NCBI GenBank assembly: GCA_964509485.1
Contig: CAZDXW010000001.1
Location: 1 to 49,096, forward strand
From: an uncultured Christensenella sp.
Lineage (GTDB): Bacteria > Bacillota > Clostridia > Christensenellales > CAG-138
DNA length: 49,096 bases
Direction: 5' to 3'
Position 1 is the first letter of the stretch. Every line of letters begins with the position of its first letter. The notes under the pieces were generated by a model. That model had not been told where the DNA came from, searched no databases, and was given only the letters and a program-made list of their open reading frames with translations. The position numbers were made by a program, and so were the translations under genes. This document shows positions 30,512-47,848 of this stretch, in pieces.

Positions 30512-30599
30512 CTCTCTTCTCCTGCCAACATCATAATTGGTTCATTGCGCCGACTTTCGCAGGTACATGTACCCGTCCGTTCCGCGGAAAGCGGCGTTG

Positions 30600-30827: not shown

Positions 30828-32812
30828 TCTTCAAACAGTACCGGTCTGCGAATATACCGAAATCCCGTGCTCCATGCCTCCGTTACGACGACCCCGTTCT
30901 TTCGCGACGAGCAGTGCGCAACAAGATAGCTGCCGTCGTCGTCCACCGAGACAATGATTCCAACGTGGTTAAACTGCTTTTCCCCCGGTACCGAGTAGAA
31001 GGCCAGATCGCCCGGTTTTCCCTCGTCCCAGCCGATCGCCGTGGAATGCGACCACTGGCTCGACGACCCGTTGCCAATCGCTTCCAGTACGCTCGTGTCT
31101 CCGGTCGCGTTGACGAACGTCCAACTGACGAACCCGCTGCAGTCCAGCCCGCCGGTGCGTTCCACGACGACGGATTCCCCGTCCTGTTCCGTGCGAACCG
31201 AGCAGGGCAGCCCCCATTGCTCGTTCCAGCCAAGCTTGTTGTACTTCCCCCCCCAGAGGTAGGTCACCTTGCCGACCAGCGAAAACGCGGTTTCGACCAC
31301 ATCCTTGCGCCGGACATCAAGATCGGCGGGAAGCGCGGCGCGGATCTGCTCGAGATCGGCATCCGTCGCGTCGAGAAACGCGGCGTTCCCGGTCAGCGAC
31401 GCGAACGTACGCTGAAACTCCGGCTGCATCAGCTCATATAGAAAGCTTTCGCGCTTGGCGTCCATGTCGTACTCGCCGGCCATCTCGTCGTACGATTTCG
31501 AATCCAGCATGACATTCGTCACGCCGTCCATGCGGATCACGCTGACCGGGTTCATGCGCCAGAACACCTCGTCCAACCCGTCCAGCGAAATCGATCGCAG
31601 CTGCATCAGGTCCAGCGGATGATCCACGTCCAGACTGCTTTCGGCGATAAACGTCGCCAGCACGTCGGACCAGTTCTTCACCGCCGCTTCCTGCACCGGC
31701 GAGAATTCCGCCGGTGCGACGCTCTCCGCGTCCGTGTCGTTCTCCGTGGCCGACTGCGCCATGATCCGTACGCCTGTTTCGCCCGCGGTCATCGACTGAA
31801 CTTTCTCGGCATACTGCTGCGTCAAATCCGCAATCTTCGCCGTCAGCGCGTCGCAGATTTCGTTGCGATACGCCAACAACACCTCATATCGTTCCGCACT
31901 GCTGCCCGTTGGTTCCGCAACGGTTCCATCCACATCCTCGTCGCTCTCGCCGGTAACGTGAACCACCCGCGTCACGGTGATCAGTTCGCCATCCTGCATC
32001 GCGCCATAGGTCACGCGGTAGTCCCCCGCGAGATCCGCACAAAAACCCCCGTCGTCCACCACCCAAACCGCTATCGGTTCGCCGGATTCCGTCTGCGCGC
32101 TCACGCCTTCCAGCAGCACAAAGGACGTGTCTCCGGCGGGAATCGACGTGTCCGCCGCCGTAATCGTGACCTTGCCGGTCGCGCTCGTCGGCACCGGAAC
32201 CGGCGTCGGCGTCGGCTCCGTTTCGTCCGGTGCCGCCTCGCCTTTCGCCAGCACAATCGTCCTGCCTGCATCCTCCGAAAGGTTCGCTACGCTTGCGCCG
32301 CCGCTCTCGCGATAACCGTCCTTCTCGGCGTTCGCGCGGTAATCATGCCCAGTCGGCAGCAGCCAGAAGACACTCCCCTCCGCTCCCGTCACTTCGGAGT
32401 AGAGAAACTCGCCATCCATATAAAGCTTCACGCGCGCGCCGGAAAGCGCATTCCCGTCCGCATCCTGAACCAGAATGGTCAGTCGAGCGTCCGCCGGAAT
32501 GGGCGTTGCCTCCGGGTCTTCCGCTGCATCCGTGCCGTCGGGCGTTACCGAAGGTTCCGCCGACTGCGTCGCTTCGGGTGTCGGCGTACTCTCCGCCGGA
32601 GGCTCGCTTTGTTCGGATTCCTCCACCACCGCACTCTCTTCCGGCACGGCAGTTGCTTCCGGTTCGCACACCGCGTCGGTATACAGTTCATCCTCCAGCG
32701 TGTAATCCAGCGCGTGAACCGCCGGTTCGGCACAGGCGGACAAGGCAAGAAGCAGCATGCCCGTCATCAGCAGCAACGCCAGTTTTCCGAATTGTCCTCG
32801 ATTTCGTTTCAT
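30824..32812 (-). CDS. Secreted lipoprotein with Ig-like modules and a C-terminal NlpC/P60 peptidoglycan endopeptidase domain
   Basis: Start at ATG 32812 (AGGAGG RBS) and lipobox LLALSAC. A carboxypeptidase-regulatory-like segment (RLTILVQDADGNALSGARVKLY) and an Ig-like segment (GDYRVTYGA...VTRVVHV) are present. The catalytic Cys lies in GGLDCSGFVSW and the His in FNHVGI. Confidence 0.8.
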   Translation of the reverse strand: MKRNRGQFGKLALLLMTGMLLLALSACAEPAVHALDYTLEDELYTDAVCEPEATAVPEESAVVEESEQSEPPAESTPTPEATQSAEPSVTPDGTDAAEDPEATPIPADARLTILVQDADGNALSGARVKLYMDGEFLYSEVTGAEGSVFWLLPTGHDYRANAEKDGYRESGGASVANLSEDAGRTIVLAKGEAAPDETEPTPTPVPVPTSATGKVTITAADTSIPAGDTSFVLLEGVSAQTESGEPIAVWVVDDGGFCADLAGDYRVTYGAMQDGELITVTRVVHVTGESDEDVDGTVAEPTGSSAERYEVLLAYRNEICDALTAKIADLTQQYAEKVQSMTAGETGVRIMAQSATENDTDAESVAPAEFSPVQEAAVKNWSDVLATFIAESSLDVDHPLDLMQLRSISLDGLDEVFWRMNPVSVIRMDGVTNVMLDSKSYDEMAGEYDMDAKRESFLYELMQPEFQRTFASLTGNAAFLDATDADLEQIRAALPADLDVRRKDVVETAFSLVGKVTYLWGGKYNKLGWNEQWGLPCSVRTEQDGESVVVERTGGLDCSGFVSWTFVNATGDTSVLEAIGNGSSSQWSHSTAIGWDEGKPGDLAFYSVPGEKQFNHVGIIVSVDDDGSYLVAHCSSRKNGVVVTEAWSTGFRYIRRPVLFEE

Positions 32813-32848
32813 GTCCGCTCCTCCTTTCCCACCTGTTCGGCTCATTCG

Positions 32849-33748
32849 TCAGCCCACCCCGCGAACGACCATTCGCACTTCGCCGCAGATTGCGCTCATT
32901 GGAATCTGCCCGATTCGGACGTCCCGGCTGTCGATCGACTTCGCGCGGTTGTCTCCCATCAGAAACACCATGTCGTCCTGCACGGTCACACTCTCCATGC
33001 CGCTGTTGTGCAAATCATCCGCCTGGATGTAAGGCTCGTCGGTCAGCACCAGATTTCGCACGACGGTGCCGTCCGCGTTGACCTGAATCACGTCGCCCGG
33101 CAGCCCGATTACCCGTTTGACCACCAGGCCGTATGCATCTCCCGTATCGAAGATCACGATATCGCCGTAGGTCACGTCTTGTACGCTCGTGTAGTAGAGC
33201 TTGTCGCCCTCCATGAGCGTCGGCTGCATTGAGGTTCCGGTGACCGCGTACTCCCGAACCACCAGCAGCGCGCCAATCACCGCGAGCAGCGCAAACGCTA
33301 CCACCGCAAGCAGCACAATCAGGGATCGCTTCGCGTGCGGGTTCGATTGCGCGCGCTCTATTTTCTGTGGACTTGCAGCTAAGCTCTGCGGCTTTGCCTC
33401 TGGTTTTCGTTTCGGCTGCGGCAATTGCGGCTGCTTCGTCTTCTTTTTCTTGTGTTGTTTCGCCGGTTTTACACCCGTTTTCGGTCTGTTCTGTCCGGAA
33501 CCCTGGCGCGCACGCTCAATCGGGAACCGCAGCGGTTCCTTCTGCTTCGGCTTCTCCGTTTGCTGCGGCTGCGTCGGAACAAGCGTCCACTGCGGACGTT
33601 CATACGAGAATTCCGGCATCGCCTCCGGCCGGCTGTTCGGGTTGCACTCGTTTTCGCTCCGTTGTCGGATATACGTGTTTGGAGAACGTTTGATTGTTTT
33701 TCGGACGGTCTTATAGGTCTGTGTATATCCGGAAATCCGATTTTCCAT
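32849..33748 (-). CDS. Signal peptidase I (S26), catalytically intact, with a long basic N-terminal extension
   Basis: Box B 'GTSMQPTL' (Ser), box D 'VVKRVIGLPGD' (Lys) and box E 'GDNRAKSIDSR' are present. The single TM segment is LIVLLAVVAFALLAVIGALLVV. It is preceded by about 140 Lys/Pro/Gln-rich residues. Confidence 0.85.
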   Translation of the reverse strand: MENRISGYTQTYKTVRKTIKRSPNTYIRQRSENECNPNSRPEAMPEFSYERPQWTLVPTQPQQTEKPKQKEPLRFPIERARQGSGQNRPKTGVKPAKQHKKKKTKQPQLPQPKRKPEAKPQSLAASPQKIERAQSNPHAKRSLIVLLAVVAFALLAVIGALLVVREYAVTGTSMQPTLMEGDKLYYTSVQDVTYGDIVIFDTGDAYGLVVKRVIGLPGDVIQVNADGTVVRNLVLTDEPYIQADDLHNSGMESVTVQDDMVFLMGDNRAKSIDSRDVRIGQIPMSAICGEVRMVVRGVG

Positions 33749-34640: not shown

Positions 34641-35636
34641 TTACTTCTTGTTCTTCTTCCCCGGCAGGAACGCCGCCACCAGGCAAATCAATCCCAGCGC
34701 GATGAGAATCCACCAAAGGTAGGCCTTCGATTCGTCCCCCGTCTTTGGTCCGTCCGGCTTGTCGTAGGCGTTCGTAAACACCAGCCCCGTCTGCGCTGCT
34801 CCCGATGCGTTGGTGATTGTCCGCGTTGCGGAGAGCTTCCCGTTCGTTTCCGTCACCACGACCGTCATGTGGTAGACCGTTGAATCATAGGTGTATCCGC
34901 TTGCCGAACCAACTTTTTCGTACACGGTATAGGTGTAGGTTCCTGCTTGCGTATACGTAATGTTCCCGAAATCTCCGCTTCCCGCGCCTGTGACGTTGAC
35001 CGTTTTGATCCCGCTCACGCTTCCTTCCGGCATGGGGTACGACGCATTGTCCGCCTTCATGTAAAACGTAAATACGCTGTTTGACGATGGCGTGTCGCCG
35101 CTGATTCGCTTCTCCACCGGAGGGTCGACGATCACATAGTCCGAGAGCACCGTGTTCGTAAACAGTGCCCGTTCCTGTTTCTCCGTCTGCCCGTGCTTCA
35201 CGAGATACATCACCGCCTGCAGCGTTCCGCCCGCCTGATCCTTCCAGGTTACCTGCACGGTCAGATCGTATACGGTTGTGTCGTATACGTAGTCTCCGCT
35301 GGTCCCGGCGACTTCGGAAATGGTGTAAAGGTAGTCGCCAACCGCCGTATACGTAATCGTTCCAAACGTCGTGTTTCCCGTTCCCGCAATCGTGGTTGTC
35401 TTCACCCCGTTGACGCTTCCGGCGGGCATTGGCGCGTTGTTGAGGGCGCTCAAACGAAACGTGAACGTCTCCGTCGTCGCCGGTATGCCGGAAACCACCT
35501 TGTAAACGGGTATGCTCAGCGTTGCCGGGGTGTCCGCCAGCGCGAGATTTCCCGCGGGAACCAACAGCGTTATCGTAAGCAGTAGCAAGCCCGCCATGAC
35601 TTTCTGTAGCAATCGAATTCGGTTTATAGATTTCAT
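34641..35636 (-). CDS. Pilin subunit with two FctA/Spy0128-like isopeptide domains and a GPKTG sorting signal (candidate basal or minor pilin)
   Basis: Start at ATG 35636, which overlaps the upstream sortase TGA. It has a signal peptide. The repeated motifs are 'PVYKVV...GDYLYTISE...YDTTVYDLTVQV...FTN' and 'VEKRISG...GTYTYTVYE...YDSTVYHMTVVV...FTNAY'. The C-terminus is 'GPKTGDES', a TM helix, then KKNKK. Confidence 0.8.
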   Translation of the reverse strand: MKSINRIRLLQKVMAGLLLLTITLLVPAGNLALADTPATLSIPVYKVVSGIPATTETFTFRLSALNNAPMPAGSVNGVKTTTIAGTGNTTFGTITYTAVGDYLYTISEVAGTSGDYVYDTTVYDLTVQVTWKDQAGGTLQAVMYLVKHGQTEKQERALFTNTVLSDYVIVDPPVEKRISGDTPSSNSVFTFYMKADNASYPMPEGSVSGIKTVNVTGAGSGDFGNITYTQAGTYTYTVYEKVGSASGYTYDSTVYHMTVVVTETNGKLSATRTITNASGAAQTGLVFTNAYDKPDGPKTGDESKAYLWWILIALGLICLVAAFLPGKKNKK

Positions 35637-36385
35637 CACGGTTCGCCTCCGGCTTGTTCTGTTTCGGTCATTCTTGCGACGAGAATCATTCTTCCGTTCG
35701 TCGTTCCTTCCGCGCAGGTGGACAAGGCGACGATCCGGTCCCGATCCGTCAGATCCGCCCCGCGGCGGAACGTTGCATCCTGCTGAATGTGCTTTGCCAG
35801 CGCATTCCAGCCGTCTGCCTCCAGCGGCAGATTGAAGAGCGGAGACGTGTACGCGTCCACTTCGAGAAACGCAATCATCTCCAGTTGATAGGTCTTGCCC
35901 GGCAGATACAGCCAGCCGGTTTGATGTTCGTCGAAATAGGTCTTGTCCGCAAATTTCTCCAAGTCGCCGAACATCATCCCGCCAGCCATGTGGTGCCCAT
36001 AGATCAGCGAATACTGATCCGAAAAGTCCTTGCTGCAGCGGTAGTCCAGAAAGATGCTGCCGCCGAGCGAATAGTCCCCGTAGATATCCTGGTTGAGATA
36101 CTTTGTGTTGTCGTCTGCCCGCAACACGGGGTAGTCGATGTTTGTGTCGTCCACCGTGAGCCACGCGCAGACCTCCGCGTTGATTGCCTGTAGCTCCGAA
36201 AGGGAGGGATTGGAAACGTCCGGTTTGAAGTGCATGACCTCGCTGGACACGCCCGCCTTGTTCAGAACCGAGTACGAGTCCCAGAGCGCGTACCCTGCAT
36301 AAAACAGGATGACGAGCAGCACCAGAATCAATGCCAGGTTCAGCAGCCTGTCCAGGCCGCGGATTAACCGGTCCGCCGTTTCCAA
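35636..36385 (-). CDS. Class B sortase (pilin polymerase candidate)
   Basis: N-terminal TM. Motifs 'AWLTVDDTNIDYPVLRADDNTKYL', 'LIYGHHMAGGMMF', 'ALSTC' and 'RMILVAR'. Confidence 0.82.
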   Translation of the reverse strand: METADRLIRGLDRLLNLALILVLLVILFYAGYALWDSYSVLNKAGVSSEVMHFKPDVSNPSLSELQAINAEVCAWLTVDDTNIDYPVLRADDNTKYLNQDIYGDYSLGGSIFLDYRCSKDFSDQYSLIYGHHMAGGMMFGDLEKFADKTYFDEHQTGWLYLPGKTYQLEMIAFLEVDAYTSPLFNLPLEADGWNALAKHIQQDATFRRGADLTDRDRIVALSTCAEGTTNGRMILVARMTETEQAGGEP

Positions 36386-36414: not shown

Positions 36415-37752
36415 TTACTTGCGTTTCCTGAGCAGGATCACGACCAGGAGGATCGCAACCACGCCGAGCAGCGCATAGGGCAGGATGTTGAGCAGCACGC
36501 CCGTCGGCGTCACAGACTCCTTGTTGTTCGTGAAGTTCTGCTCGTTGACCGCACCCGCGCCCGTGAAGATTGTCTGCTGGTTGGTCGTTTTATTGGTCGT
36601 TACCGCCGTCTTAACCGTCGTCAGCACCGCCGGGGTAGCCGTATTGCCGTGTTCAACGGTGATCGTCGTGCGGTAATCCGCCGTTCCGCTCTCTGTCGTC
36701 GTCACGCGCTCGCCCGACGGCAGGCCGATGATCTGGATGTACTGGCTGTGCGTCAGCGTGAACGTTCCGGAGTTCGAAATGGTTCCGGTTCCGCCCGCCA
36801 CCGCGGTGTCCGCCGCCGTGCCCGTTCCGCCGATTGCGTTGTCGCTGCCCATCTCATACTTCTGATAGGTATAGCTTGCCGTGTCGGCGGCTCCCGCCGG
36901 CGTGACCAGTCCAAGCGTAAACGAGAATGCCAGGTTCGGGTCCGCGATGTCACCGGTGACCAGTTTCGTAACCGTCAGGGCTGCCGTGTTGTAGTCGTTG
37001 ACAAACGGGTAGCTGATGTTGCGAACGGCTCCGTCCGTAGCCGGAGGCAGCACGATGCCGATTTTACCGACGTCCTCTTCGCCCGGGTTGTTCGTGATCG
37101 GTCCCAGATTGCCGTTGTCCGGCCCGGTCAGGGTCAGGTTGCTGGTGTTGGTGGTTTCCCACGCCGTAATCGCGCTGACGTTTACCACCGGGTTGCCGCT
37201 CGCATCCAGTAAGGGCGTGCCGTCGTCATTCAACACGTTGGTGACGTAAACGTTGATGTAGTAGACCGTTTCGTCATAGTCCACACCGGAGATCGGGGAT
37301 CCCGGAACGGTACCCAGCGTATCGGTCGTGCCGGGGATGCGCTCGGTGAGCCGATAGGTGTAAATACCCGCTTGCGTATAGGTGATGTTCCCCGTCGTGG
37401 TGGTCTGCGTCTGCGTCGTGCCCGTTGCCGTCGCCGAGAAACCGCTCACAGTGATGAGCTGCGCACCGGTCGTTCCGCCCGGCATTGGCAGGTTCGCCGC
37501 GGTATACGCAATCGACCCTGCGCTCGTTGGCCCCGCCGTATAGCCCACCGGCTCCAGCAAAAAGCCAAAGCTCGTGACCGCCGGAAAGACCCCTGCCGTC
37601 GTCGCCGTCAGCGTCTTGCCAACGGTGATGTTTGCGCTGTTGTTGTGGCTCGCCGGATCATCCGCCATGGATGTGGTGAACGGTGCCATCACCAGTGCCA
37701 GAGCGAGCAGCATCATCAGCGCTCTTCCAAGTTTTCCGTAGTTGCGTTTCAT
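36415..37752 (-). CDS. Backbone pilin candidate, two-domain FctA/Spy0128-like, VTPTG sorting signal
   Basis: Signal peptide. Domain 1 reads 'ITVGKTL...GIYTYRLTE...YDETVYYINVYV...YPFVNDY'. Domain 2 reads 'LTVTKLVTGD...FSFTL...QNFTNNK'. The C-terminus is 'VTPTG-VLLNILPYALLGVVAILLVVILL-RKRK'. Its position relative to the SipA-like gene and the sortase mirrors fctA. Confidence 0.8.
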   Translation of the reverse strand: MKRNYGKLGRALMMLLALALVMAPFTTSMADDPASHNNSANITVGKTLTATTAGVFPAVTSFGFLLEPVGYTAGPTSAGSIAYTAANLPMPGGTTGAQLITVSGFSATATGTTQTQTTTTGNITYTQAGIYTYRLTERIPGTTDTLGTVPGSPISGVDYDETVYYINVYVTNVLNDDGTPLLDASGNPVVNVSAITAWETTNTSNLTLTGPDNGNLGPITNNPGEEDVGKIGIVLPPATDGAVRNISYPFVNDYNTAALTVTKLVTGDIADPNLAFSFTLGLVTPAGAADTASYTYQKYEMGSDNAIGGTGTAADTAVAGGTGTISNSGTFTLTHSQYIQIIGLPSGERVTTTESGTADYRTTITVEHGNTATPAVLTTVKTAVTTNKTTNQQTIFTGAGAVNEQNFTNNKESVTPTGVLLNILPYALLGVVAILLVVILLRKRK

Positions 37753-37849: not shown

Positions 37850-38428
37850 TTATAGCCCGCGGTTTCGCAGCAGTGAAATCACTTTCCCTTTGATATCCCC
37901 TTTCGCAACCGGGCCAAAATCCCGGCTGTCCTGCGCGTACTCGCGGTTGTCCCCGAGGATGAACACCTCGTTTCCCGCGAGTGTAACCGGTAGAACGGTT
38001 GCCCGCCCTTCGGCGCTTGTCGCGGAAAACACCTCTTCCTGCTGAACGCTGCCGTTGACAATCAGCTGTCCATCCGCGTTGAGATCCACCGTGTCTCCGC
38101 CCATTGCGACAATGCGCCCGTAATACAGAACTCCGTTCTTTGCGTAGGCAACAACGTCGCTGACGTTTTGCTCCGCTTCCAGCCGGTAAAAAATCACCAT
38201 GTCTCCGTCCCGCAGGCGAGGATACATTCCCTCGCCGTTTACAATTCCGACTCCAAAGAGGAAGGAGAGCGCCAGATATCCGCATATCGCAATTGCGGCA
38301 ATCTTCTCCGCCAGTGCCCATGCACTGTGCCGGATCTCCAACCTTCGCCTGCGCGTCTGGAAAATCTGTACAACGCGTTCTTTATCGTCGACCTTGTGTT
38401 TCCCGCTCATTCTACTCGTTTGTTCCAT
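37850..38428 (-). CDS. SipA/LepA-like signal-peptidase-I homologue lacking the catalytic Ser and Lys (pilus assembly chaperone candidate)
   Basis: It has the S26 fold boxes, but box B reads 'GEGMYPRL' (Gly where Ser is expected). Box D reads 'YGRIVAMGGD' (Gly where Lys is expected). Box E 'GDNREYAQDSRDFGPV' is retained. Start taken at ATG 38428 (MEQTSRM). The alternative at 38461 overlaps the upstream gene by 32 nt. Confidence 0.8.
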   Translation of the reverse strand: MEQTSRMSGKHKVDDKERVVQIFQTRRRRLEIRHSAWALAEKIAAIAICGYLALSFLFGVGIVNGEGMYPRLRDGDMVIFYRLEAEQNVSDVVAYAKNGVLYYGRIVAMGGDTVDLNADGQLIVNGSVQQEEVFSATSAEGRATVLPVTLAGNEVFILGDNREYAQDSRDFGPVAKGDIKGKVISLLRNRGL

Positions 38429-38429
38429 C

Positions 38430-38897
38430 TCACTTGCCCGAGGCGCTCTTTCCTCCGCCATACAGCTTCAAGATTTGGTTGGCCGAGAATGCCTGCGCGG
38501 AAGCGGTCTCATCTTCGCGGCTCTGCCCAAACTGTCGCTGTTTCTGCTTTCGCGTTTGCGTCTCACTCGGAACAAGCGCCGCCGTCTGCTCTTGCCGCTC
38601 CTGAACTCTCATTGGTTCCTTCTGCATGGCCTCTTTCAGCTGATTCCACTCGTCCCGCATCCGCTTCACTTCCTCGTCGTTCTCGCGGATCATGTCCTGC
38701 AGCTGCAACGCGTAGTTGCGCCATTCGCCAACCGCCCCCTGCGAGTTTTGGTGCTGAACATCCAGCAGCTCGTCGTATTCCCCATGCAGTTTCTCGAATA
38801 CCCGCCAGACGTCCTCTTCGTCCACTCCGCCGATGATCCGATTCCGAAATTTTACGGAGTTCAAGTATCTCTCCAGTTGTTTGTAACTCTTTGCCAT
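38430..38897 (-). CDS. Coiled-coil protein with a DivIVA-like N-terminal motif
   Basis: 155 aa with no signal peptide. 'VKFRNRIIGGVDEEDVWRVFEKL' resembles the DivIVA/GpsB N-terminal 'F..GFRGYD..EVD.FL' motif. Heptad-rich Glu/Gln/Arg sequence follows. Confidence 0.55.
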   Translation of the reverse strand: MAKSYKQLERYLNSVKFRNRIIGGVDEEDVWRVFEKLHGEYDELLDVQHQNSQGAVGEWRNYALQLQDMIRENDEEVKRMRDEWNQLKEAMQKEPMRVQERQEQTAALVPSETQTRKQKQRQFGQSREDETASAQAFSANQILKLYGGGKSASGK

Positions 38898-38920
38898 TCC
38901 AATTCATCCCAATTCCTATT

Positions 38921-41900
38921 TCAGATTCTCTTCGCGTTTCGTTGCCTGCTTTGCTTTTTACGGTGCGCCAGAGAGAGCGACAACGTCAGCACTCCGCCGG
39001 CCAGAAGGATCATCAGAGCATATGGATAGATGTGCAGCAGAATCCCCGTTGGTACGGTGCCAATCAACGTGTTTGTAAACAGCAGATTGACGTCGCCTAG
39101 AACGGTGCTTCCCGCTCCGGCATTGCCAACTGCGGTAAAGCTGCCACCATTCGTCTCCGTGATCTCCAGTTGATACCCACTGAAGATCAGGATTTCGGAG
39201 ATCACATAGGAGGATCCAACCGGAACTTTGTCGATCGTGATGCTTTGTCCGTGCTTGAGCGGAATGATCGCAAACCCGCTCAGGATCGTTCCGTCCGCCG
39301 GAGCTTCCACGCCTGCAATGGTGGATGCGCCGGTGTAGGCCAGCGACGCTCCTGCGTCGTTGAGCACGATTCGGAAGTTGAACTCCTCCTTCGGATCGGC
39401 CAGATTGCCCTTCACGATCTTGGAGATCGTGATCGACTTGGTGCCGACGCGATGGTATGTTTCGTTTGTCAAAAGCGAATCCGTTCCCGTCGTCACGTTC
39501 GCGCTGTTCACATAGAATGTTTCGAGTGCCCCCGCGGTCACCATCTCAATGGTCACCTGAAACGCAAACTGGTGCTGCTCGCTGGTTACGGGAGCGTCCT
39601 CCCAGAAGACCGTGGTGACGCCGGTCGCCGTATCCGTTGACCAGGTCATTCCCGGCGTATAGGTTCCGCTGTCCTTGACCAGCGTTAACCCCGCCGGAAG
39701 TACATCCGTAATATCAACCGTTCCAATGTTCGCAAGCGCATAGGCGTCATTCCAATCGAGGTCGATTGAATAGGTAATCGTGTCGTTGATTGCCGCTTCC
39801 ACCGGTGCTGTTGGCGTTCCGTTGTTGATACTCCCCGCGTTTAGCCTTGCGTTTTTACTCGCTGACAACAGCACACCGTATCCGAAGTCCATGTTATCGA
39901 CGGACGCGGTTATCCCTGTCAAGGTTACGCCGCTCACGATGGCCCGGGTCCCCGTCTCTTCCGCGTCGTTATCGGTAGAGGCCGTCTTCAGCGTTATCTG
40001 CAATCCGTCCGGCGTGGTCATCACGATTTGGTAAGACCCCTGCGGGATTCCGTTCAGGTTGTATTCGCCGGCCGCATTGGTCGCCGCAATGAGAGGCGAA
40101 CCGTAGATTCCGTTGACCGGCGTCGTATACGTGGTATCCCCGGCGGCATAGAGTCCAACCGTCATGCCGGGAAGCCTGCTCTCGGCGGCGTCGATCATGC
40201 CGTTCCAGTTCGTATCCGCCCAAACCCGCCCGTTGACCGAACGAATGATGGCAAAGCCGATGTCCTGGTTGTTTACTGCCGTCGCCGTCGTGAGATCAAT
40301 CCCGCTGATCACGGCGTTTGCGCTCTCTGCCAATGCGTCGTTGTCGGTCGAAACCGTCTTTAACGTTACAATATGATTGTCCGGCGTGAGCGCAACCACT
40401 TTGTACGTGCCATATGGAATCTGAGCGAAGCTGTACGCGCCGTTTGCATCCGTCGTGGTTGTCAGCGGTGTACCGTTCAGGTTGTTCGCAGGCGTTGTAT
40501 AGGTTGTGCTCGTGCTTGGATACACGCCGACCGTAAGCCCGGATACGCGGGGTTCGCCGGTTTCCAGCATGCCGTCCCAATCGATATCCGTCCAGACGGT
40601 ACCGCTGATCGAGTGGCTGATCGTAAAGCCGAAATCTTTATGCACATAGGACGTCGCAGTCGTTAAATCAATGGAGTTGATAACAGCCCGTGTGCCGGAC
40701 GGTACGGCGTCGTTGTCATTCGCCAGCACCGTGACGACGTATCCGTTTGGTGTTGTCGTAACCACTTTGTATGTACCATACGGAATGGAGGATAATGTGT
40801 ATCCACCCGTCGAAGTGGTTGTTGTCGTCAGCGCGACCCCATATATATTGGTAACCGGGGTTGTATAGGTCGTATCCGTGCTGGCGTACAGACCCACCGT
40901 TAAGCCGGAGAGCAGCGTCTCGCCGCCTGTTCCGCTCATGCCGTCCATGGTTCCGTTTGCGTTAGCATCCAGCCAGGCGTTGCCGGTTACTCTTCGATCC
41001 GGCGCAAAGCCGAAGTCCATGTTACTAGCAGACGTTGCAGTGGTCAGCCCAACGTTGCTAATCAAAGCCCGTGTACCGGAGGGACTTGCATCATTATCAT
41101 TCGCCAATCTTGTTACGATATACCCGCTTGGCGTCGTAATTACGACCTTATAGGTTCCGTAAGGGATCAGCGAGAAGCTGTAGGTTCCGGTCGCACTCGT
41201 TGTCGTCGTCAACGATTGGCCATATAGATTCGTCAGAGGAGTGGAATAGGTGTTATCCGTATTTGCGTAGATTCCAACCGTCAAACCAGAGATTCTGCTC
41301 TCTCCTGTGTCGATTGTGCCGTCCGTGTCCGTGTCATACCAGACGCGGCCGGCAATCGTGCGATTTGAAGTAAGCCCGAAATCGATGTTTGTCACAGCCG
41401 GAGTTGTGGTCGAAACCGAAACATTTCCCGTCCGCGCAATCGTCTGTGGGGAAAGCATGGTCGGCGACGCATCGTTGTCATTCACCAACCGAGTCATCAC
41501 ATAACCGCCCGGTATGGAAATCTGAAGGATATATACGGTAGCATCAATAGACGAGAACGAATAATCGCCAGATGCATTTGTAACCGCAGTTGCGATTGGG
41601 TTGGTAAAGAAATAGTCGTCGTTCCGGTAGGCTGTTACCGTGATTCCGGGCATTCTGGTTTCGCTGGTGTCGATTGTTCCGTCGGAATCCGCATCGTTCC
41701 AGATTCTGCCGCTGATCGATCCACCGACAATCGTAAAGCGGTTCACATAGGACGTTTCGTCCCCCGAATTAACCGTCCGCCCGGTCACGCTGGAGTAGCT
41801 CGTGAAATCGCTTGCATTGTATCCTTCGTAGTTGCGGTCGTTATAGGTAACGCTCGCCTGATTCTTTACGACCATTCCAACGGGACCCGTTACGCGAGCC

Positions 41901-43000
41901 TGATACGAAATGGTGTGGGTCATACCTTCGCCGTAAGCAAGGTTAATGCCAATGGTGTTTCGGGAGCCCCACGTCACGCCGCCGTTCGTATTGGACGTGC
42001 CCGCGGTTGCCCCGTCGCCAAAGTTGACGCGTAGTTCGTCCGTCGTGCTGTTAAACGTCGCAAGGCTTCCCGCTTGATAACCGTCAATCGTTACGCTGCC
42101 GGAGACGAAGTCGAGTCCGTCGCTCAGGATGTCCCGAAACACACAGCGGGATGCATCGGACTCACCCCAGTTCGTAATGTTGACTGTGACGGTAACAACC
42201 TGGCCTCGCCATGCGGTTGTGCTGCCAGACTGCAGCGTTGTGATGCTTTTTTTTGCAATCAGTTTAGAGCCGGTCTGAAACGCAACGTCGTCTAGGAAGT
42301 TACCGTTCTGTACGTTTCCAGTCCAGGAAGAAACGGCTGCAAAGTCAAATTCTGTACTGGTTTGGCCTGCTGGCACTGTATATGCGCCGCGGTAGTAGTA
42401 CCATTGGGTTCCGTTGTTGTTTGCCGTTTGGATTAGCTGCGAACCGGAAGGCGCGGTCGTTGGTGAACCGGAAGGCCGCAGATAGAAGTTCATTTGATCG
42501 TATTTTGTCGAACTGTTCCCAATCGCCCGATGGGCGAACTGCCAATATACTCTGGAACTAGGTGTAGTAGAAACAACCTGATACAAACGCCCTGGAAAGA
42601 GGCAATTCAGCTCAGCATACTGATTTCCATCCGCCTGCGTTGTAGCGAAGGTATATGGAACACCGGAATTCCCAGTCGGATCGACAACTTGCAACTCGAT
42701 TAAGTAAGCATTTGGATTCGTACCATAAGCCGCATAGTCGACAGGGCAGGTTGACCAGCTCGCCATTTGAGCAATCGTATAGCCGTCAAATCGAGCGCCG
42801 TCACTGGCACGAACGCGGGTAACCGTTGGAGATTGGAAACTACCGTTAAGAAAATTAATCGGCAGCGGCTTCGTTTCGTTGGGCACATAGTAAACCTGTG
42901 TCCCGGCCTGTGCCGACTTCACAGGGAGCAACAATGCCAACGCTCCAATCACCAAGGCGACACCAATAAAAGACAGAGCTCTATTCTTACGTTTCTTCAT
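38921..43000 (-). CDS. Large sortase-anchored tip-adhesin candidate (1359 aa)
   Basis: Start at ATG 43000 (MKKRKNRALSFIGVALVIGALALLLPVKSAQA). The inferred architecture, N- to C-terminal, is as follows. First an N-terminal jelly-roll/lectin-like domain (NGSFQSP...GNFLDDVAF). Then a DUF11-like domain and five SdrD-B/CnaB-like repeats. Then a second DUF11-like domain and a SpaA/FctA-type isopeptide domain (ITISKIVKGN...FNFRIVL...LLFTNT). The sorting signal is 'TVPTG-ILLHIYPYALMILLAGGVL-...HRKK'. Confidence 0.85.
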   Translation of the reverse strand: MKKRKNRALSFIGVALVIGALALLLPVKSAQAGTQVYYVPNETKPLPINFLNGSFQSPTVTRVRASDGARFDGYTIAQMASWSTCPVDYAAYGTNPNAYLIELQVVDPTGNSGVPYTFATTQADGNQYAELNCLFPGRLYQVVSTTPSSRVYWQFAHRAIGNSSTKYDQMNFYLRPSGSPTTAPSGSQLIQTANNNGTQWYYYRGAYTVPAGQTSTEFDFAAVSSWTGNVQNGNFLDDVAFQTGSKLIAKKSITTLQSGSTTAWRGQVVTVTVNITNWGESDASRCVFRDILSDGLDFVSGSVTIDGYQAGSLATFNSTTDELRVNFGDGATAGTSNTNGGVTWGSRNTIGINLAYGEGMTHTISYQARVTGPVGMVVKNQASVTYNDRNYEGYNASDFTSYSSVTGRTVNSGDETSYVNRFTIVGGSISGRIWNDADSDGTIDTSETRMPGITVTAYRNDDYFFTNPIATAVTNASGDYSFSSIDATVYILQISIPGGYVMTRLVNDNDASPTMLSPQTIARTGNVSVSTTTPAVTNIDFGLTSNRTIAGRVWYDTDTDGTIDTGESRISGLTVGIYANTDNTYSTPLTNLYGQSLTTTTSATGTYSFSLIPYGTYKVVITTPSGYIVTRLANDNDASPSGTRALISNVGLTTATSASNMDFGFAPDRRVTGNAWLDANANGTMDGMSGTGGETLLSGLTVGLYASTDTTYTTPVTNIYGVALTTTTTSTGGYTLSSIPYGTYKVVTTTPNGYVVTVLANDNDAVPSGTRAVINSIDLTTATSYVHKDFGFTISHSISGTVWTDIDWDGMLETGEPRVSGLTVGVYPSTSTTYTTPANNLNGTPLTTTTDANGAYSFAQIPYGTYKVVALTPDNHIVTLKTVSTDNDALAESANAVISGIDLTTATAVNNQDIGFAIIRSVNGRVWADTNWNGMIDAAESRLPGMTVGLYAAGDTTYTTPVNGIYGSPLIAATNAAGEYNLNGIPQGSYQIVMTTPDGLQITLKTASTDNDAEETGTRAIVSGVTLTGITASVDNMDFGYGVLLSASKNARLNAGSINNGTPTAPVEAAINDTITYSIDLDWNDAYALANIGTVDITDVLPAGLTLVKDSGTYTPGMTWSTDTATGVTTVFWEDAPVTSEQHQFAFQVTIEMVTAGALETFYVNSANVTTGTDSLLTNETYHRVGTKSITISKIVKGNLADPKEEFNFRIVLNDAGASLAYTGASTIAGVEAPADGTILSGFAIIPLKHGQSITIDKVPVGSSYVISEILIFSGYQLEITETNGGSFTAVGNAGAGSTVLGDVNLLFTNTLIGTVPTGILLHIYPYALMILLAGGVLTLSLSLAHRKKQSRQRNAKRI
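39878..41719 (-). repeat. Five tandem repeats of about 120 codons each (SdrD B-repeat / CnaB-like) inside the adhesin gene
   Basis: Each unit starts with the (I/V)xG(R/T/N)(I/V/A)W.D...(D/N)G pattern: ISGRIWNDADSDGTID, IAGRVWYDTDTDGTID, VTGNAWLDANANGTMD, ISGTVWTDIDWDGMLE, VNGRVWADTNWNGMID. Each ends in (D/M)(F/I)GF. Units 2-4 share IPYGTYKVV. Confidence 0.85.
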
Positions 43001-43016
43001 ACATCCGTTCCTTACC

Positions 43017-44327
43017 TTAGTCGATGACTTGTATAGCGTTACTGTCGCCTTCTTCGCCCGGCGTACTGTTCGTCTTTGCCGTTTGCGACGCATCCTTCAG
43101 AACGACGATTTCCGCGGTTACCCGCCCTCCGCCGCCAAATCCATCCTCGACATGCATACTCAATTTGTAAGTGCCCGCCGAATCCGTATCGTACCTCCCA
43201 CTCCATGAGATGGGGATGTTCCGGTAACCGCCGTCTCGCATGAACGCGCCCGTTTGGCTTGGCAGATGTACGCTTTCGCCTTCCAGAACAACAAAGCGCA
43301 TCAGAAGTCCGTCCTCGGATATGCCACAGAAACTTTGAATCTCGTTGCAGTCCGCAATGCGTACGCTTGCCGTCACCGGTTCGCCCGCGTAGGTATAGGC
43401 GGTGGAGGGAGTGCTCACCTCTGGCGTTTGCACCGGTTCTTCCGTTTGATCGGGCACAGGGCTCTCTTCGATTTGCTCCGTCGTCTCCACCGTCTCGGAG
43501 GAGGGATTCAGTATCGACGCCGTGAACACCCAGGGGCCATAGCCATACCGGCTCTCGATTGCATAAATCGTCTCATTCTCGTAGAGCTCGTTTGCTTCGT
43601 CCGCAACGCTGGCCCAAGTAACCGGAACCTCAATCGGTACCCCGTTGCCGTTGATTGCGGTAAGCGTCGCAGGCAGCGGGATATTCTCCTCCGAAGTGCC
43701 GCGCTCCACGAAGATTTCGATCGGTTCGTTCACAAAGGAAGTAATCACAGAATCGAGCGCGGGATCGGGCGTCGGGGTGATCTCCGGCGAAGCGCTTCCA
43801 TCCGGCGTTAAGCTCGGTTCCGGCGTTTCGGAAGCATCCGGCGTAGCGAAAGGCTCCGCTTCCTCTGCCGCCTGCACCTCAACCTCAATAGTTGGCAGCG
43901 TTCCTTCGTATATGTATCCCGGCTGAAGTACCGCGGCGAAGAGGTATGTGCCAATGGAATCCGGCGTATAATCCTCGCTCACCCAGGCAACGGGCACGTC
44001 GCGCAGTTCCAGTATCTCGGTCGGCGCTTCGCTTTGCTCCGCATCCTGCGAAGGTTCCTGAGGAATCACAACGCTTGCGGGGAGCGTATCCGGCAGCCCG
44101 ATTTCTTCCGCCGCTGTTCCAAGCGGCACAACCAGCTTTGCTGTGCGCTCCTCGGAAAACGAAGCGATAGCGACTTCTCCGTCCGCCAGAGCGCGTACTG
44201 TTTTCGTGCCGCAGGCGGTAGCAAAGAGGCAAAGCACCAGCAGCATGCAGGTGAATATCCGTGCCCTGCTTAACCCGGTATGCGTCGTACCCATGTTTCT
44301 TTGGCTCTCGCCTGATTTCTGATTCAA
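43017..44327 (-). CDS. Lipoprotein with three Big_4-like Ig modules; first gene of the pilus operon
   Basis: TTG start at 44327, placed 7 nt after AGGAGG. An alternative ATG lies at 44294. Lipobox LFATAC. Three 'V(P)V.W....Y...S.GTY' modules are present (VPVAWVSEDYTPDSIGTYLF, VPVTWASVADE, IPISWSGRYDTDSAGTYKL), separated by Pro/Glu/Thr linkers. Confidence 0.7.
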   Translation of the reverse strand: MNQKSGESQRNMGTTHTGLSRARIFTCMLLVLCLFATACGTKTVRALADGEVAIASFSEERTAKLVVPLGTAAEEIGLPDTLPASVVIPQEPSQDAEQSEAPTEILELRDVPVAWVSEDYTPDSIGTYLFAAVLQPGYIYEGTLPTIEVEVQAAEEAEPFATPDASETPEPSLTPDGSASPEITPTPDPALDSVITSFVNEPIEIFVERGTSEENIPLPATLTAINGNGVPIEVPVTWASVADEANELYENETIYAIESRYGYGPWVFTASILNPSSETVETTEQIEESPVPDQTEEPVQTPEVSTPSTAYTYAGEPVTASVRIADCNEIQSFCGISEDGLLMRFVVLEGESVHLPSQTGAFMRDGGYRNIPISWSGRYDTDSAGTYKLSMHVEDGFGGGGRVTAEIVVLKDASQTAKTNSTPGEEGDSNAIQVID

Positions 44328-44656: not shown

Positions 44657-45328
44657 CTACTTCCTGTCCTCCATCCATCCCATCTTCGCTGCGTACGCGA
44701 TTACTTGTGACTTGTTCTCCATTTGCAGTTGCTCCATGATCGAAGCCATGTGATATTTTACGGTTCGTTCGGTGATTCCAAGAAGATCGCCCGTTTCTTT
44801 ATAGGTCGTTCCTTTTGCTACCGCTTCCAGTACTTCCATTTGTCGTTCAGTGAGCCCGCTGCCGATGTGTGTGTTCGCCCCCGAGAGGAACACACGATTT
44901 TTCAGATCGCTGCTACTGATCTCCCGGAGCAGCCGCGCCGCCAGCCTGGGCGAGAGCGGAGCGCCTCCGTTTTCCAAGTCCAACAGCATATCAACCAGCT
45001 CCGCTCCGTTCATGCTCTTGAGCAGATAGCCGGATGCGCCCAGTTTAATTGCCTGGAACAAATCTTCGTCGTCCTCGGACGTGGTCAGCATAATGATTTT
45101 TATCCCCGGCATCCGCCCCTTGATCTGACGGAGGGCTTCAATCCCGTCGCATTCCGGCATGCGGACATCCATTAAAATAATATCCGGTGTAAGCGTTTCG
45201 GCTTTCTGCACCGCTTCCCTTCCGTTGCAAGCCACACCGACAACCTCTACGCCATAGGTTCCCAATAAAAACTGCAAACTGTCGGTAAACAGTTTATGAT
45301 CGTCTGCCAGCAGTATTCTCGGCGCCAT
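44657..45328 (-). CDS. NarL/LuxR-family response regulator (copy 2)
   Basis: Start at ATG 45328 (MAPRILLADDHKLF). Receiver domain (DIILMDVRMP, IIMLTTS, GASGYLLK) followed by a LuxR HTH (LTERQMEVLEAVAKGTTYKETGDLLGITERTVKYHM). Confidence 0.88.
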   Translation of the reverse strand: MAPRILLADDHKLFTDSLQFLLGTYGVEVVGVACNGREAVQKAETLTPDIILMDVRMPECDGIEALRQIKGRMPGIKIIMLTTSEDDEDLFQAIKLGASGYLLKSMNGAELVDMLLDLENGGAPLSPRLAARLLREISSSDLKNRVFLSGANTHIGSGLTERQMEVLEAVAKGTTYKETGDLLGITERTVKYHMASIMEQLQMENKSQVIAYAAKMGWMEDRK

Positions 45329-45397
45329 GTCCCATCCCTCGTTTCCCAATTCCTTTTACATCGTTCCCCCTTTATTTAACACTGATTGTAACTATTT

Positions 45398-45487: not shown

Positions 45488-46153
45488 CTATTTTTGATGG
45501 ATCCATCCCATCTTCGTCGCGTAGGCGATCGCCTGCGCTTTGTTTTCTGTTTGGAGTATCTCCATAATGGTCGCCATATGATACTTCACGGTTCGTTCGG
45601 TGATGTGCAGCTGGCTACCAACCTCCTTATAGGTCGCGCCTCGAGCCACCGCTTCCAGCACCTCAATCTGACGTTGTGTCAACGGGTCATCATTTGCTGC
45701 ATCCACCTGCGCAACAACGGCGTTTGTCGGCTCTCCACCACGGCGAAACTCATTGAGCAGACGCGTTGCCAGCTTCGGCGCGAGCGGAGCGCCGCCTTTC
45801 TCGATATTGAGCAGCATTTCGACCAGTTCATTCCCGTTCATGCTTTTCAGCAGATAACCGGACGCCCCCAGCTTGATTGCCTGAAACAGGTTCTCGTCTT
45901 CATCGGACGTGGTCAGCATGACCACCTTGACGTCCGGCATCTTGCTCTTGATTCGCTTCAGTGTCTGAATTCCATTGCTCCCCGGCATCATAATGTCCAT
46001 CAGAATCACGTTTGGCTTCAGTTCTTCGGCTTTTTGCAGTGCTTCAAACCCGTTTTCCGCTACACCGAGAACCTCGATCCCATAGGTTCCCAACAGAAAC
46101 TTCAAACTATCGGTAAACAGCTTATGGTCATCGACAAGAAGTATTTTTAACAT
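45488..46153 (-). CDS. NarL/LuxR-family response regulator (copy 1, cognate position after the kinase)
   Basis: MLKILLVDDHKLF..., receiver domain plus LuxR HTH. It is a paralogue of copy 2, sharing long identical runs (LFQAIKLGASGYLLKSMNG, TERTVKYHMA). Confidence 0.9.
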   Translation of the reverse strand: MLKILLVDDHKLFTDSLKFLLGTYGIEVLGVAENGFEALQKAEELKPNVILMDIMMPGSNGIQTLKRIKSKMPDVKVVMLTTSDEDENLFQAIKLGASGYLLKSMNGNELVEMLLNIEKGGAPLAPKLATRLLNEFRRGGEPTNAVVAQVDAANDDPLTQRQIEVLEAVARGATYKEVGSQLHITERTVKYHMATIMEILQTENKAQAIAYATKMGWIHQK

Positions 46154-46165
46154 ATGCTATCCTCT

Positions 46166-47848
46166 CTATTCCAACGGAAGAAACAGTTGGATCTGGGTTC
46201 CTTTTCCGGGTTTTGACTCGATGCTCAGCTCCGCACCCATTTCCGCCGCGCGCTCACGCATAATGTTTAATCCAAAGTGATTCTCAATGGAAATATCCGG
46301 GTCAAACCCGCATCCATCGTCGCGTAGAAAAATCCAGAGGGCGTCTTTTGTTTGTCGCATCGTCAACGCAACCTGCTTTGCGCCTGTGGCGTGTTTACGA
46401 ACGTTGTTCAACGCCTCTTTTAAGATATAGTAAAGGTTCACCCGGGCTCTATTGTTCAATCGACTGACGACATTCGCTCCAGTAATATTCTCGGAAACGG
46501 CAATGCCAGTCTGCCTATGAAATTCTTCCAAGGTCTCTCTGGTCACGGCGAATGGGTCTTTTTCCACCGATTGCGCCTCGCGCACGCTGTGGATGTAGTC
46601 CCGTATCTCACGGTGTGCTGTTTGCGAAATATCGACCAGTCTCGAAAGATCCCGATATACCTTTTCGGTTTCCTCATACTTGAGCTCGTTGCAGATTCCC
46701 TGCGCCTGCATGCTAATCGACGCCAGCACCTGCGCGAGATTATCGTGCAGGTCTCTGGCCAGCTTCTCGCGTTCTCTGCTGGCAACGACCGCTGTGGTTT
46801 GCTGCAGCGTGCGCTGCTGTTCCATTCGCATTTCCGTAATATCGGAAATCAGAACGACATATCCGGCGTCAACGCCTTTTTTACTCGTAATCGGCATCCT
46901 TTGCGCGCGAAGATACTTCCTGGCGCCCGCGTTCTCCTCCAACAGAATTTCGGTGGAATCACCGTTTTGCAGGTCGCACAGTTCGCGGCTCAGGCTCGAC
47001 AGAACACTCACCGCCGACATGCCGAGCAGCGACCTCTTGTTTTTCTCAAACATCAATTGAGCCGCGTGATTTACATCCGCTATGTTCCCGTAGTTGTTTA
47101 TCACGAGAATTGCAACGTTGATGTTGTCCACCGCCGCCCCTCTGGCAATTGGCGCTGAAACAAACAAGTGATAGCCGCCCGCCGCTGCGAGCACGGATGC
47201 AACGCTCAAAAAAACACCGGTAATGTCGTATCCCTTGGTCAGCCAAAACGACATCAGATAAAGCAGGCTCGGACAAATACTGATGACTGGCCCCAGTAAA
47301 AACGAAGACATTTTCATTCCGTAAATGGATTTATAGAACAGCGATTTTTGAAAGACCAGTATCATTGCAATGGCGTCCAGCGTATATGTGTAAATTGGAT
47401 TGAGCAAAAAAACCCAGGCGAAGGATCGAGAAGTGGCCGGCAGTCGCACCCCGGCGTCTATGGAAAACCCATAATACACCAATCCGGAGAAGTGCTTTGT
47501 CCAGACTAGAATCATCGATAGAATCGGAAGGATAAGAAGAAGGATGAGCGTTTTTGATTTCAGCCATTCCCGCTTGCCTCCAAACTGAAGCACCATAATA
47601 AACCAGATTGTATGCAAAGCCGTATACAAACAGAATGTAGCGTTTTCCCAGAAATTCTGCGTGTAAAAGTCTGCGCTCAGGATCGAGAGTCCCTTGCAGA
47701 CGATCCAGCCGCCTAGAAAAAGCATGCTAAGGCCAAACAGTTTTGCACCCCTGACTCTGTAATAGATCACCGAAAACAAACCCTGCATCATGACGATAAA
47801 AAACGATATCACCATGGACCATATGCCAGGAATGTACTTGAAATACAT
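46166..47848 (-). CDS. Sensor histidine kinase: N-terminal 7TM domain - PAS - HisKA_3 - HATPase (NarL-type partner)
   Basis: About 7 hydrophobic helices in the first 230 aa, then a PAS-like segment. The H-box is 'LARDLHDNLAQVL' (HisKA_3), followed by 'LKEALNNVRKHA' and 'DDGCGF...GLNIMRERA'. Confidence 0.88.
   Translation of the reverse strand: MYFKYIPGIWSMVISFFIVMMQGLFSVIYYRVRGAKLFGLSMLFLGGWIVCKGLSILSADFYTQNFWENATFCLYTALHTIWFIMVLQFGGKREWLKSKTLILLLILPILSMILVWTKHFSGLVYYGFSIDAGVRLPATSRSFAWVFLLNPIYTYTLDAIAMILVFQKSLFYKSIYGMKMSSFLLGPVISICPSLLYLMSFWLTKGYDITGVFLSVASVLAAAGGYHLFVSAPIARGAAVDNINVAILVINNYGNIADVNHAAQLMFEKNKRSLLGMSAVSVLSSLSRELCDLQNGDSTEILLEENAGARKYLRAQRMPITSKKGVDAGYVVLISDITEMRMEQQRTLQQTTAVVASREREKLARDLHDNLAQVLASISMQAQGICNELKYEETEKVYRDLSRLVDISQTAHREIRDYIHSVREAQSVEKDPFAVTRETLEEFHRQTGIAVSENITGANVVSRLNNRARVNLYYILKEALNNVRKHATGAKQVALTMRQTKDALWIFLRDDGCGFDPDISIENHFGLNIMRERAAEMGAELSIESKPGKGTQIQLFLPLE

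Follow-up and report, generated by a model that had tools for sequence, protein, structure and literature searches.

What is encoded by the small open reading frame (ORF) that separates an adhesin gene from a SipA-like gene in the pilus operon of an uncultured Christensenella sp. (Clostridia; Christensenellales; CAG-138), and what could its product do for a sortase pilus? The stretch of DNA analysed, here called the window, comprises 49,096 nucleotides of contig CAZDXW010000001.1 (GCA_964509485.1). Its operon runs in the order Big_4 protein, SdrD_B adhesin, the ORF, S26 peptidase-like protein (SipA), DUF7601 pilin, sortase, FctA pilin, sortase, second S26 peptidase and NlpC/P60+CHAP hydrolase. 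The ORF extends from ATG to TGA at 38430-38897 (-) and specifies 155 amino acids. A preliminary description had regarded the product as a cytoplasmic DivIVA-like coiled-coil protein and as a plausible scaffold for placing pilus assembly at poles, septa or curved membrane. The data presented below point, more specifically, to a dedicated partner of SipA, nearer to the logic of GpsB than to general polar or septal positioning.

The ORF encodes a real protein under purifying selection. Its 16 close homologues share 51-100% identity with it, and every one of them has 153-157 amino acids. In their alignment, residues 1-91 are strongly conserved and the linker is variable; the ratio of nonsynonymous to synonymous substitution rates (dN/dS) over residues 1-92 is 0.09-0.25 where dS is unsaturated. 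The gene order is the same in the homologous loci L001-L006, with the ORF in the same operon in each readable contig; the check on conservation proposed earlier thus gave a positive result. The junction to the SipA-like gene reads TGA-g-ATG, with the stop codon at 38430-38432 and the ATG at 38426-38428, and the longest ORF of the SipA-like gene begins at 38461 instead. Because gene calls in homologous loci use a SipA start 1 nt past the stop (7496/7498 in L002), the 1-nt gap reported previously is correct for the likely start. The SipA gene is translationally coupled to the ORF. The 19-residue mean of Kyte-Doolittle hydropathy peaks at 0.15 in the ORF product, against 2.3-3.2 in the neighbouring signal peptidase-like proteins and sortases, which supports a cytoplasmic location without a transmembrane (TM) helix, as first described. 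Two long ORFs on the opposite strand, 38199-39029 (+) and 38168-38836 (+), were regarded as GC-rich shadows cast by the real gene.

The N-terminal ~45 residues define an unannotated family of small cytoplasmic proteins. An exhaustive profile search of 1.84 billion representatives (E<=1e-3) returned 204 matches, nearly all confined to profile positions 1 to ~50 and lying in proteins of 55-120 amino acids. A second search with the family alignment gave 393 clusters, in which no Pfam domains were found and the few named proteins are called 'hypothetical protein'. The family consensus is MxAKxMEDIAxxLKxxxFRKKLxGGVDEADVWRQLExLQxEY, with F17, G23, G24, V25, E27, W31 and Y41 invariant among 128 relatives. 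A typical member has 60-100 amino acids and a core of ~45-80. The plasmid collection contained no homologue of this N-terminal domain (N-domain), and the SipA query retrieved only ordinary lepB genes from it.

The genomic neighbourhood ties the N-domain to SipA. When one genome of each GTDB species was scanned, 80 N-domain loci were obtained, all from Clostridia; their neighbourhoods were examined by our own ORF calling and phmmer with the window proteins as queries. The carriers belong to Lachnospiraceae, Oscillospiraceae, Gemmiger, Faecalibacterium, Anaerobutyricum, Proteiniclasticum, Pseudoramibacter and other taxa. They include the cultured Anaerobutyricum hallii DSM 3353, Frisingicoccus caecimuris DSM 28559, Gemmiger gallinarum DSM 109015, Faecalicatena contorta, Proteiniclasticum aestuarii, Pseudoramibacter faecis and Zhenpiania hominis. 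An S26-like gene lies directly downstream on the same strand, mostly with an overlap of 4-20 nt, in 71 of the 80 loci; a further N-domain/S26-like pair was found in one (L042), and in three (L018, L033, L053) the N-domain, a linker, a TM helix and the S26 domain form one in-frame fusion. The contig ends right after the N-domain gene in four loci, and a pilin gene comes next instead of the S26-like gene in one (L019). Nearly all loci of sufficient length continue downstream of the pair with pilin, sortase and FctA-type pilin genes, and independent public gene calls gave the same cassette.

The S26-like partners do not have the active site of a peptidase. The catalytic Lys is absent in 75 of 75 (alignment column Gly 71, Ala 3, Ser 1) and the catalytic Ser in 71 of 75 (Asp 42, Gly 13, Glu 7, Ala 5, Asn 3, Gln 1, Ser 4). 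In SipA/LepA of Streptococcus pyogenes, Asp48 and Gly85 stand in place of Ser and Lys, and the protein is a peptidase-like chaperone essential for pilus polymerisation (PMC4049620). Since this loss of Ser and Lys is the diagnostic feature of S. pyogenes SipA, the partners were taken as SipA-type. The window partner (37850-38428) combines an S26 fold lacking the Ser-Lys dyad with a position inside a sortase-pilus operon, which places it with the SipA/LepA chaperones. Its best match in the PDB is SipA 4n31 (E 3e-23), together with LepA 4k8w, whereas true signal peptidases reach only ~1e-7; it is a clear homologue of SipA from group A Streptococcus (GAS).

The association was also examined in reverse, by scanning metagenomes with a narrow SipA alignment (Lachnospiraceae type). 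This gave 80 loci, 71 of them with enough upstream sequence to be informative. An N-domain ORF stood directly upstream of SipA in 41 of the 71, the N-domain shared a stop-free reading frame with SipA, as a fusion, in 26, and no N-domain was found by SipA in 4. In L161, a long Pro/Ala-rich extension upstream of SipA reaches to the contig end. At least five distinct fusion sequences were recovered (L018; L033/L095/P0261; L053; P0057; the L133 group), and fusion has occurred in several independent lineages. The 246-aa fusion of the L133 group, which begins MASKNMKDISNLLKNLKFRKKMFGGIDEKDVW, was found, with minor variation in sequence, in ~25 independent assemblies, of which many are human-gut metagenomes, and this recurrence speaks against an assembly error. 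The repeated finding of the 246-aa form (e.g., L133, L135 and L140, within L133-L169) also suggests an abundant species. Gram-positive type I signal peptidases are N-in, single-pass proteins, so in the fusions the N-domain lies in the cytoplasm, beside the TM helix of SipA. The fusions provide a classical Rosetta-stone argument for a physical partnership, and, as judged from gene order and fusion, the small protein is very probably a partner of SipA.

The SipA partners in the window and in L006-L085 have a candidate contact site in their cytoplasmic tails. These carry the conserved motif (L)TPEEVIxxRRxRL, a median of 21 residues (range 14-23) before the TM helix; 62 of 76 tails fit it by a strict regular expression, and recognisable variants occur in most of the remaining 14. 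The motif is kept in the N-domain-SipA fusions, and no description of it was found in the papers searched. The residue at the position of the catalytic Ser is number 67 in the window SipA versus 48 in S. pyogenes T9 SipA, from which it follows that the clostridial tails are ~20 residues longer. GpsB recognises helical SRxxR(R/K) motifs near the membrane in the tails of penicillin-binding proteins (PBPs) and other single-pass proteins (PMC6335420). By analogy with these, we infer that the tail motif may be the docking site for the N-domain protein.

The product of the window ORF is divided into the four segments listed in Table 1. Residues 1-26 are basic (net charge +4), and the N-terminal stretch FRNRIIGGVDEEDVW...EY is the best-conserved portion of the protein. 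Two monomeric AlphaFold2 models were obtained, both of low confidence (mean predicted local distance difference test (pLDDT) values of 54 and 64); their secondary structure consists of a helix at residues 5-14, a bridge between 19 and 25, and a long helix that starts at residue 27. Over residues 27-92, hydrophobic residues occupy 58% of the a/d positions of the best heptad register, versus 32% overall. The linker (94-133) has a pLDDT below 50 and no helix in the first model, and in the second the helix runs on to residue 119 with block means of 36-55. About 100 heptad-like residues had been described initially; this holds for the predicted helix 27-92, where the heptad pattern is moderate, but not beyond it, since residues 93-136 form a low-confidence, fast-evolving linker. 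In the C-terminal helix (residues 139-146 of the AlphaFold2 model), F137, S138, A139, Q141, L143 and Y146 are invariant, and the FSANQ(I/L)LKxYG sequence was also found in P0017-P0019.

The sole Pfam model to exceed its cut-off for the window ORF was DUF6115 (PF19610; 28.5 bits vs. 27). The match, at residues 64-152, spans model positions 26-113 of 134, missing the first 25 and the last 21, takes in the C-terminal LY..G.SAS-like motif and does not include the N-domain. Ten of the 16 close homologues match DUF6115 at E<=10, and precomputed annotation is found only in the two closest. The match is marginal and the literature search found no mention of this family, so the lead was kept as a note only. 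The C-terminus of the ORF product, QILKLYGGGKSAS (residues 137-155; 38430-38489 (-)), recalls the start of the C-terminal helix-turn-helix-like element of DUF6115/SwrB-like proteins (QVIELYEQGYSAS; this comparison sequence, presumably SwrB-like, scores exactly at the DUF6115 cut-off). The ORF ends inside this element in all 16 homologues.

The resemblance of the N-domain to DivIVA and GpsB was assessed by profile comparison. A template alignment was built from the N-domains of seven solved structures (DivIVA 2wuj and 7o39; Wag31 6lfa; GpsB 4ug3, 4ug1, 6gqa and 9pv2). Against it, a family alignment of 120 sequences gave an hhalign probability of 63.7% (P 6.7e-5, score 27.5, 40 columns). Template columns shuffled 200 times scored 8.9±2.1 with a maximum of 17.4, and the reversed template scored 12.9; the real score is ~9 standard deviations over the shuffles. 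With a deeper, GpsB-dominated template (127 sequences) the probability was no higher but dropped from 64% to 29-45%, with the register unchanged. In this register F13, G19 and V25 of Bacillus subtilis DivIVA, which are invariants of the structural family, and Y36 correspond to F17, G24, V30 and Y41, all near-invariant in the new family. The membrane-inserting F17 of DivIVA aligns to I22 (family consensus F/L/I) and R18 to G23, and the basic R18 and R20 of the ORF product (consensus RKK) are situated just ahead of the hairpin tip. When 128 members were scanned one by one against 24,736 Pfam models, DivIVA was matched in 62 (best E 1.6e-4) and the next family in 18; the weak DivIVA matches listed span only profile positions ~5-71 of 131. 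Weak NCBIfam matches were to GpsB, TIGR03544 and MAG0865-DivIVA. The predicted topology of helix, hairpin and long helix is compatible with a DivIVA-type module. On these alignments the N-domain is reasonably likely to be a divergent DivIVA-type domain, with a homology in the twilight zone, and no curated criterion makes the ORF a member of DivIVA or GpsB.

Among known families, DivIVA/Wag31 (PF05103; 2WUJ, 6LFA) matches the N-terminal ~40 residues best, with all scores sub-threshold. A hydrophobic residue aligned with F17 of the hairpin and a putative coiled coil after the domain recall DivIVA. Unlike in DivIVA, R18 is replaced by Gly, the basic residues precede the hydrophobic tip rather than follow it, and the gene belongs to a pilus operon and not to cell division. 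The likeness to GpsB (4UG3, 4UG1, 6GQA) is that of small cytoplasmic proteins whose N-domains are matched profile to profile in the same register; the window's long form also resembles GpsB in having an N-domain, a flexible linker and a short C-terminal helix. GpsB clients are single-pass membrane proteins with an Arg-rich helical juxtamembrane motif (PMC6335420), and the SipA tails carry such a motif. GpsB differs in being a housekeeping hub for PBPs, whereas the ORF lies in a pilus operon, is dedicated to one client and is sometimes fused to it. The ORF family also has an invariant signature of its own, F-x5-GGV(D)E-x-DVW, and most of its members are without any C-terminal domain.

Considering these likenesses together, the protein may be a GpsB-like cytoplasmic adaptor or oligomeriser dedicated to SipA, a reading by analogy to which we give a probability of about 0.5. 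The N-domain would be a divergent DivIVA/GpsB-type module composed of a short helix, a hairpin with basic and hydrophobic residues and a coiled coil. The protein would dimerise through its long helix, be seated at the inner membrane surface and dock, as GpsB does on PBP mini-domains, on the Arg-rich helix that is conserved next to the membrane in the tail of SipA. Docking would oligomerise SipA, and hence the sortase and pilin precursors, or position them into assembly centres. In the long subfamily of the window, the flexible linker and the C-terminal helix may add higher-order oligomerisation, as the C-terminal helix of GpsB does.

Several observations weigh against the GpsB-like adaptor. 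The window ORF has no DivIVA or GpsB match in Pfam or NCBIfam at E<=10, and its relatives reach only 13-18.6 bits with Pfam DivIVA PF05103 (cut-off 28) and 15.1 bits with NCBIfam TIGR03544 (cut-off 22). The GpsB equivalog NF010725 gave 14.6 bits for the relative P0257 (cut-off 91), and the window ORF did not match it. Running the family profiles by hmmsearch against all PDB sequences retrieved no chain of DivIVA or GpsB; direct membership was accordingly rejected after the Pfam, NCBIfam, phmmer and hmmsearch comparisons, and only a remote similarity was kept. Foldseek against the PDB gave no match at E<=10 for the first AlphaFold2 model and two insignificant ones (E about 8) for the second; as a monomeric long helix is a poor query, this blank is uninformative rather than negative. 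V25, W31 and E35 stand where B. subtilis GpsB has its client-binding Tyr25, Asp31 and Asp35, whose roles were taken from PMC6335420, so the details of the binding groove are not preserved. The positive-inside rule together with lineage conservation could be enough to account for the Arg-rich tail. In L098, L130 and L170 the adhesin gene leads straight into sipA without an N-domain, and since these SipA proteins belong to the same subfamily, the partner is not strictly essential. The DivIVA/GpsB-like N-terminus first proposed is retained for its constant register, its hhalign score far over the shuffles and the predominance of DivIVA among weak Pfam matches, although no cut-off was reached and the searches against PDB sequences and structures were blank.

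The sub-threshold scores (hhalign 29-64%), the blank PDB searches with profile and model and the unconserved GpsB binding residues would suit a lineage-specific SipA accessory domain unrelated to DivIVA. Its fold would be a generic helix-loop-helix serving to stabilise, insert or regulate SipA (e.g., by control of SipA's oligomeric state or turnover), and the resemblance to DivIVA would be due to convergence or chance. We consider such a domain fairly unlikely. The register is constant across independent methods and includes the structural positions F13, G19, V25 and Y36, the hhalign score exceeds the shuffled controls by ~9 standard deviations, and DivIVA is by far the commonest weak match among the 24,736 Pfam models.

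The positional scaffold of the preliminary description, in which the hairpin and an oligomeric coiled coil would sense negative curvature at poles or septa and so place pilus assembly there, is unlikely. It agrees with the remote similarity to the DivIVA domain and with the alignment of the hydrophobic I22, flanked by basic residues, to the membrane-inserting F17, and the spatial organisation of pilus assembly is an open question (PMC7900414). The family has no DivIVA C-terminal tetramerisation domain, and its typical members of 60-100 amino acids argue against the scaffold as well. Long end-to-end oligomers are thought to underlie curvature sensing by DivIVA, and a core of only ~45-80 amino acids is too short for them. 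DivIVA R18 aligns to Gly, and a fused domain is tethered to the TM helix of SipA and hence cannot roam independently to curved membrane.

A third possibility, also improbable, is client capture: the acidic N-domain and helix, held by SipA, would bind the basic cytoplasmic tails of pilin or adhesin sorting signals, or of sortases, instead of the tail of SipA itself, and gather substrates around SipA. All three surface proteins of the window end in basic tails (…LLRKRK, …PGKKNKK and …AHRKKQSRQRNAKRI), and helix 27-92 (net charge -9) is acidic, as is the invariant loop GGVDEEDVW. No in-vitro binding of the extracellular domain of SipA to pilins or sortase was detected (PMC7900414), so the missing contacts could be cytoplasmic. 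However, the unfused protein would still require a means of associating with SipA, and the strongly conserved motif of the SipA tail, with its nearly fixed spacing to the TM helix, is better explained as a docking site. A spurious ORF, or a mere translational-coupling leader for sipA, would fit both the coupled stop and start codons and the public records, where the family is 'hypothetical protein' or not called, but is highly improbable given residues invariant across families of Clostridia, the low dN/dS and in-frame SipA fusions maintained in many samples.

The coordinates of the ORF, its segments and the neighbouring operon genes are listed in Table 1. The operon follows the order of the S. 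pyogenes FCT-2/3/4 operons (cpa-sipA-fctA-srtC-fctB), with an adhesin, a SipA pseudo-peptidase, a pilin, a sortase and an FctA-type pilin. In the published description of the GAS operon (pilins, sortase(s) and SipA/LepA), nothing separates the adhesin gene from sipA and a cytoplasmic assembly factor is not among the products; the same description calls the function and partners of SipA unknown (PMC7900414). The preliminary description limits the products of known pilus loci to secreted or membrane components; it overlooks cytoplasmic transcription regulators such as RofA, Nra and MsmR (PMC7900414).

Table 1. Features of the SipA-associated ORF and of the pilus operon in the window.
Feature	Coordinates	Strand	Basis or remarks
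SipA-associated DivIVA/GpsB-like protein, 155 aa, cytoplasmic	38430..38897	(-)	ORF, 16 homologues, dN/dS, gene order
N-terminal domain, residues 1-45: short helix, hairpin loop FRNRIIGGVDEEDVW, onset of long helix	38763..38897	(-)	family-defining module
Long acidic helix, residues 27-92, net charge -9, heptad-like; putative dimeric coiled coil	38622..38819	(-)	AlphaFold2, heptad and charge analysis
Variable Q/E/R-rich linker, residues 93-136	38490..38621	(-)	low column conservation, dN about 0.66-1.8
C-terminal short helix FSANQ(I/L)LKxYG, residues 137-148	38454..38489	(-)	conserved; long (~150-175 aa) subfamily only
SipA-type pseudo-signal-peptidase, 192 aa	37850..38428	(-)	Pfam S26; Ser->Gly67 (GEGMYP), Lys->Gly (YGRIVAMGGD)
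Arg-rich motif VVQIFQTRRRRLEI, SipA residues 19-32, candidate docking site	38333..38374	(-)	variant; fails strict regular expression
Tip-adhesin-like surface protein, 1390 aa, SdrD_B repeats + DUF7601, TVPTG sorting signal	38921..43093	(-)	stop 23 nt before ORF
DUF7601 pilin, 445 aa, VTPTG sorting signal	36415..37752	(-)	
Pilus sortase 1, 249 aa	35636..36385	(-)	
FctA/Spy0128-type pilin, ~331 aa, GPKTG sorting signal	34641..35639	(-)	
Sortase 2, 286 aa	33755..34615	(-)	
Second S26 peptidase, 299 aa, intact Ser/Lys dyad (TSMQPT, VKRVIGLPGD)	32849..33748	(-)	

With its dyad intact, the second S26 peptidase is presumably an active signal peptidase, so the operon pairs the pseudo-peptidase SipA with a presumably active enzyme; the same pairing was seen in L001-L006. 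This second peptidase has a ~140-residue Lys/Pro/Gln-rich cytoplasmic extension ahead of its TM helix. The sorting motifs of the three surface proteins (TVPTG, VTPTG and GPKTG) are not of the LPXTG type, and in each protein a hydrophobic segment and a basic tail come after the motif. The operon ends with a conserved gene for the NlpC/P60+CHAP cell-wall hydrolase of 640-690 amino acids (30824-32845 (-) in the window; 15799-17856 in L001, 6284-8314 in L003, 14582-16510 in L005), which may open the peptidoglycan so that pili can be assembled or anchored. A conjugative-element or phage context, which this gene had raised, was rejected because it regularly closes pilus operons of this type.

At the other end, the Big_4-domain protein (43017-44327 (-)) has a probable lipoprotein-like or signal N-terminus and stands directly upstream of the adhesin also in L001, L002, L005 and L006. 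Upstream of the operon the window encodes a LuxR/GerE-type response regulator (44657-45349 (-)) and, by comparison with L001 1-3120, a second response regulator and a 7TM histidine kinase (ORFs 45488-46153 and 46166-47848); MalT-like LuxR regulators occur instead in other loci (L002, L005). Small HTH_Tnp_1-like ORFs, which are transposase fragments, lie directly downstream of the operon (30320-30827 (-)) and likewise in L003 and L005. The GC content is ~0.55-0.62 in the pilus locus and ~0.48 beyond it (around 30 kb), which hints at an acquired island. In two unrelated species, a tyrosine recombinase (Phage_integrase) gene was found just upstream of the operon (3273-3974 in L087, 3263-3964 in L088, 3879-4913 in L089 and 3595-4629 in L090) and could provide phase-variable (invertible) control or mobility of the cassette. 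A TnpB/Cas12f-like gene comes right after the operon in L087 and L088.

Full-text literature searches found no paper linking SipA or sortase pili with a DivIVA/GpsB-like protein and none describing a gene between an adhesin gene and sipA. The result on gene context is robust; the mechanism is inferential. Tentatively, sortase pili in a large part of the Clostridia may possess a dedicated cytoplasmic component, a GpsB-like adaptor docked on or fused to the SipA tail that couples the assembly centre to the cytoplasmic face of the membrane and may couple it to sites of cell-wall growth or division through its DivIVA-type domain. If the adaptor reading is true, a DivIVA/GpsB-type adaptor would have acquired a new client, pilus assembly, and the adaptor principle would extend from peptidoglycan synthases to the assembly of surface appendages; in its chaperone role, SipA would act as a transmembrane organiser under control from within the cell. 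The prediction follows that the cytoplasmic tail of SipA matters. A cytoplasmic SipA partner, sometimes fused to it, in hundreds of gut Clostridia offers a concrete handle on the mechanism of SipA, and the presence of the family marks SipA-dependent pilus operons precisely in gut commensals, among them Anaerobutyricum, Gemmiger, Faecalibacterium and Lachnospiraceae.

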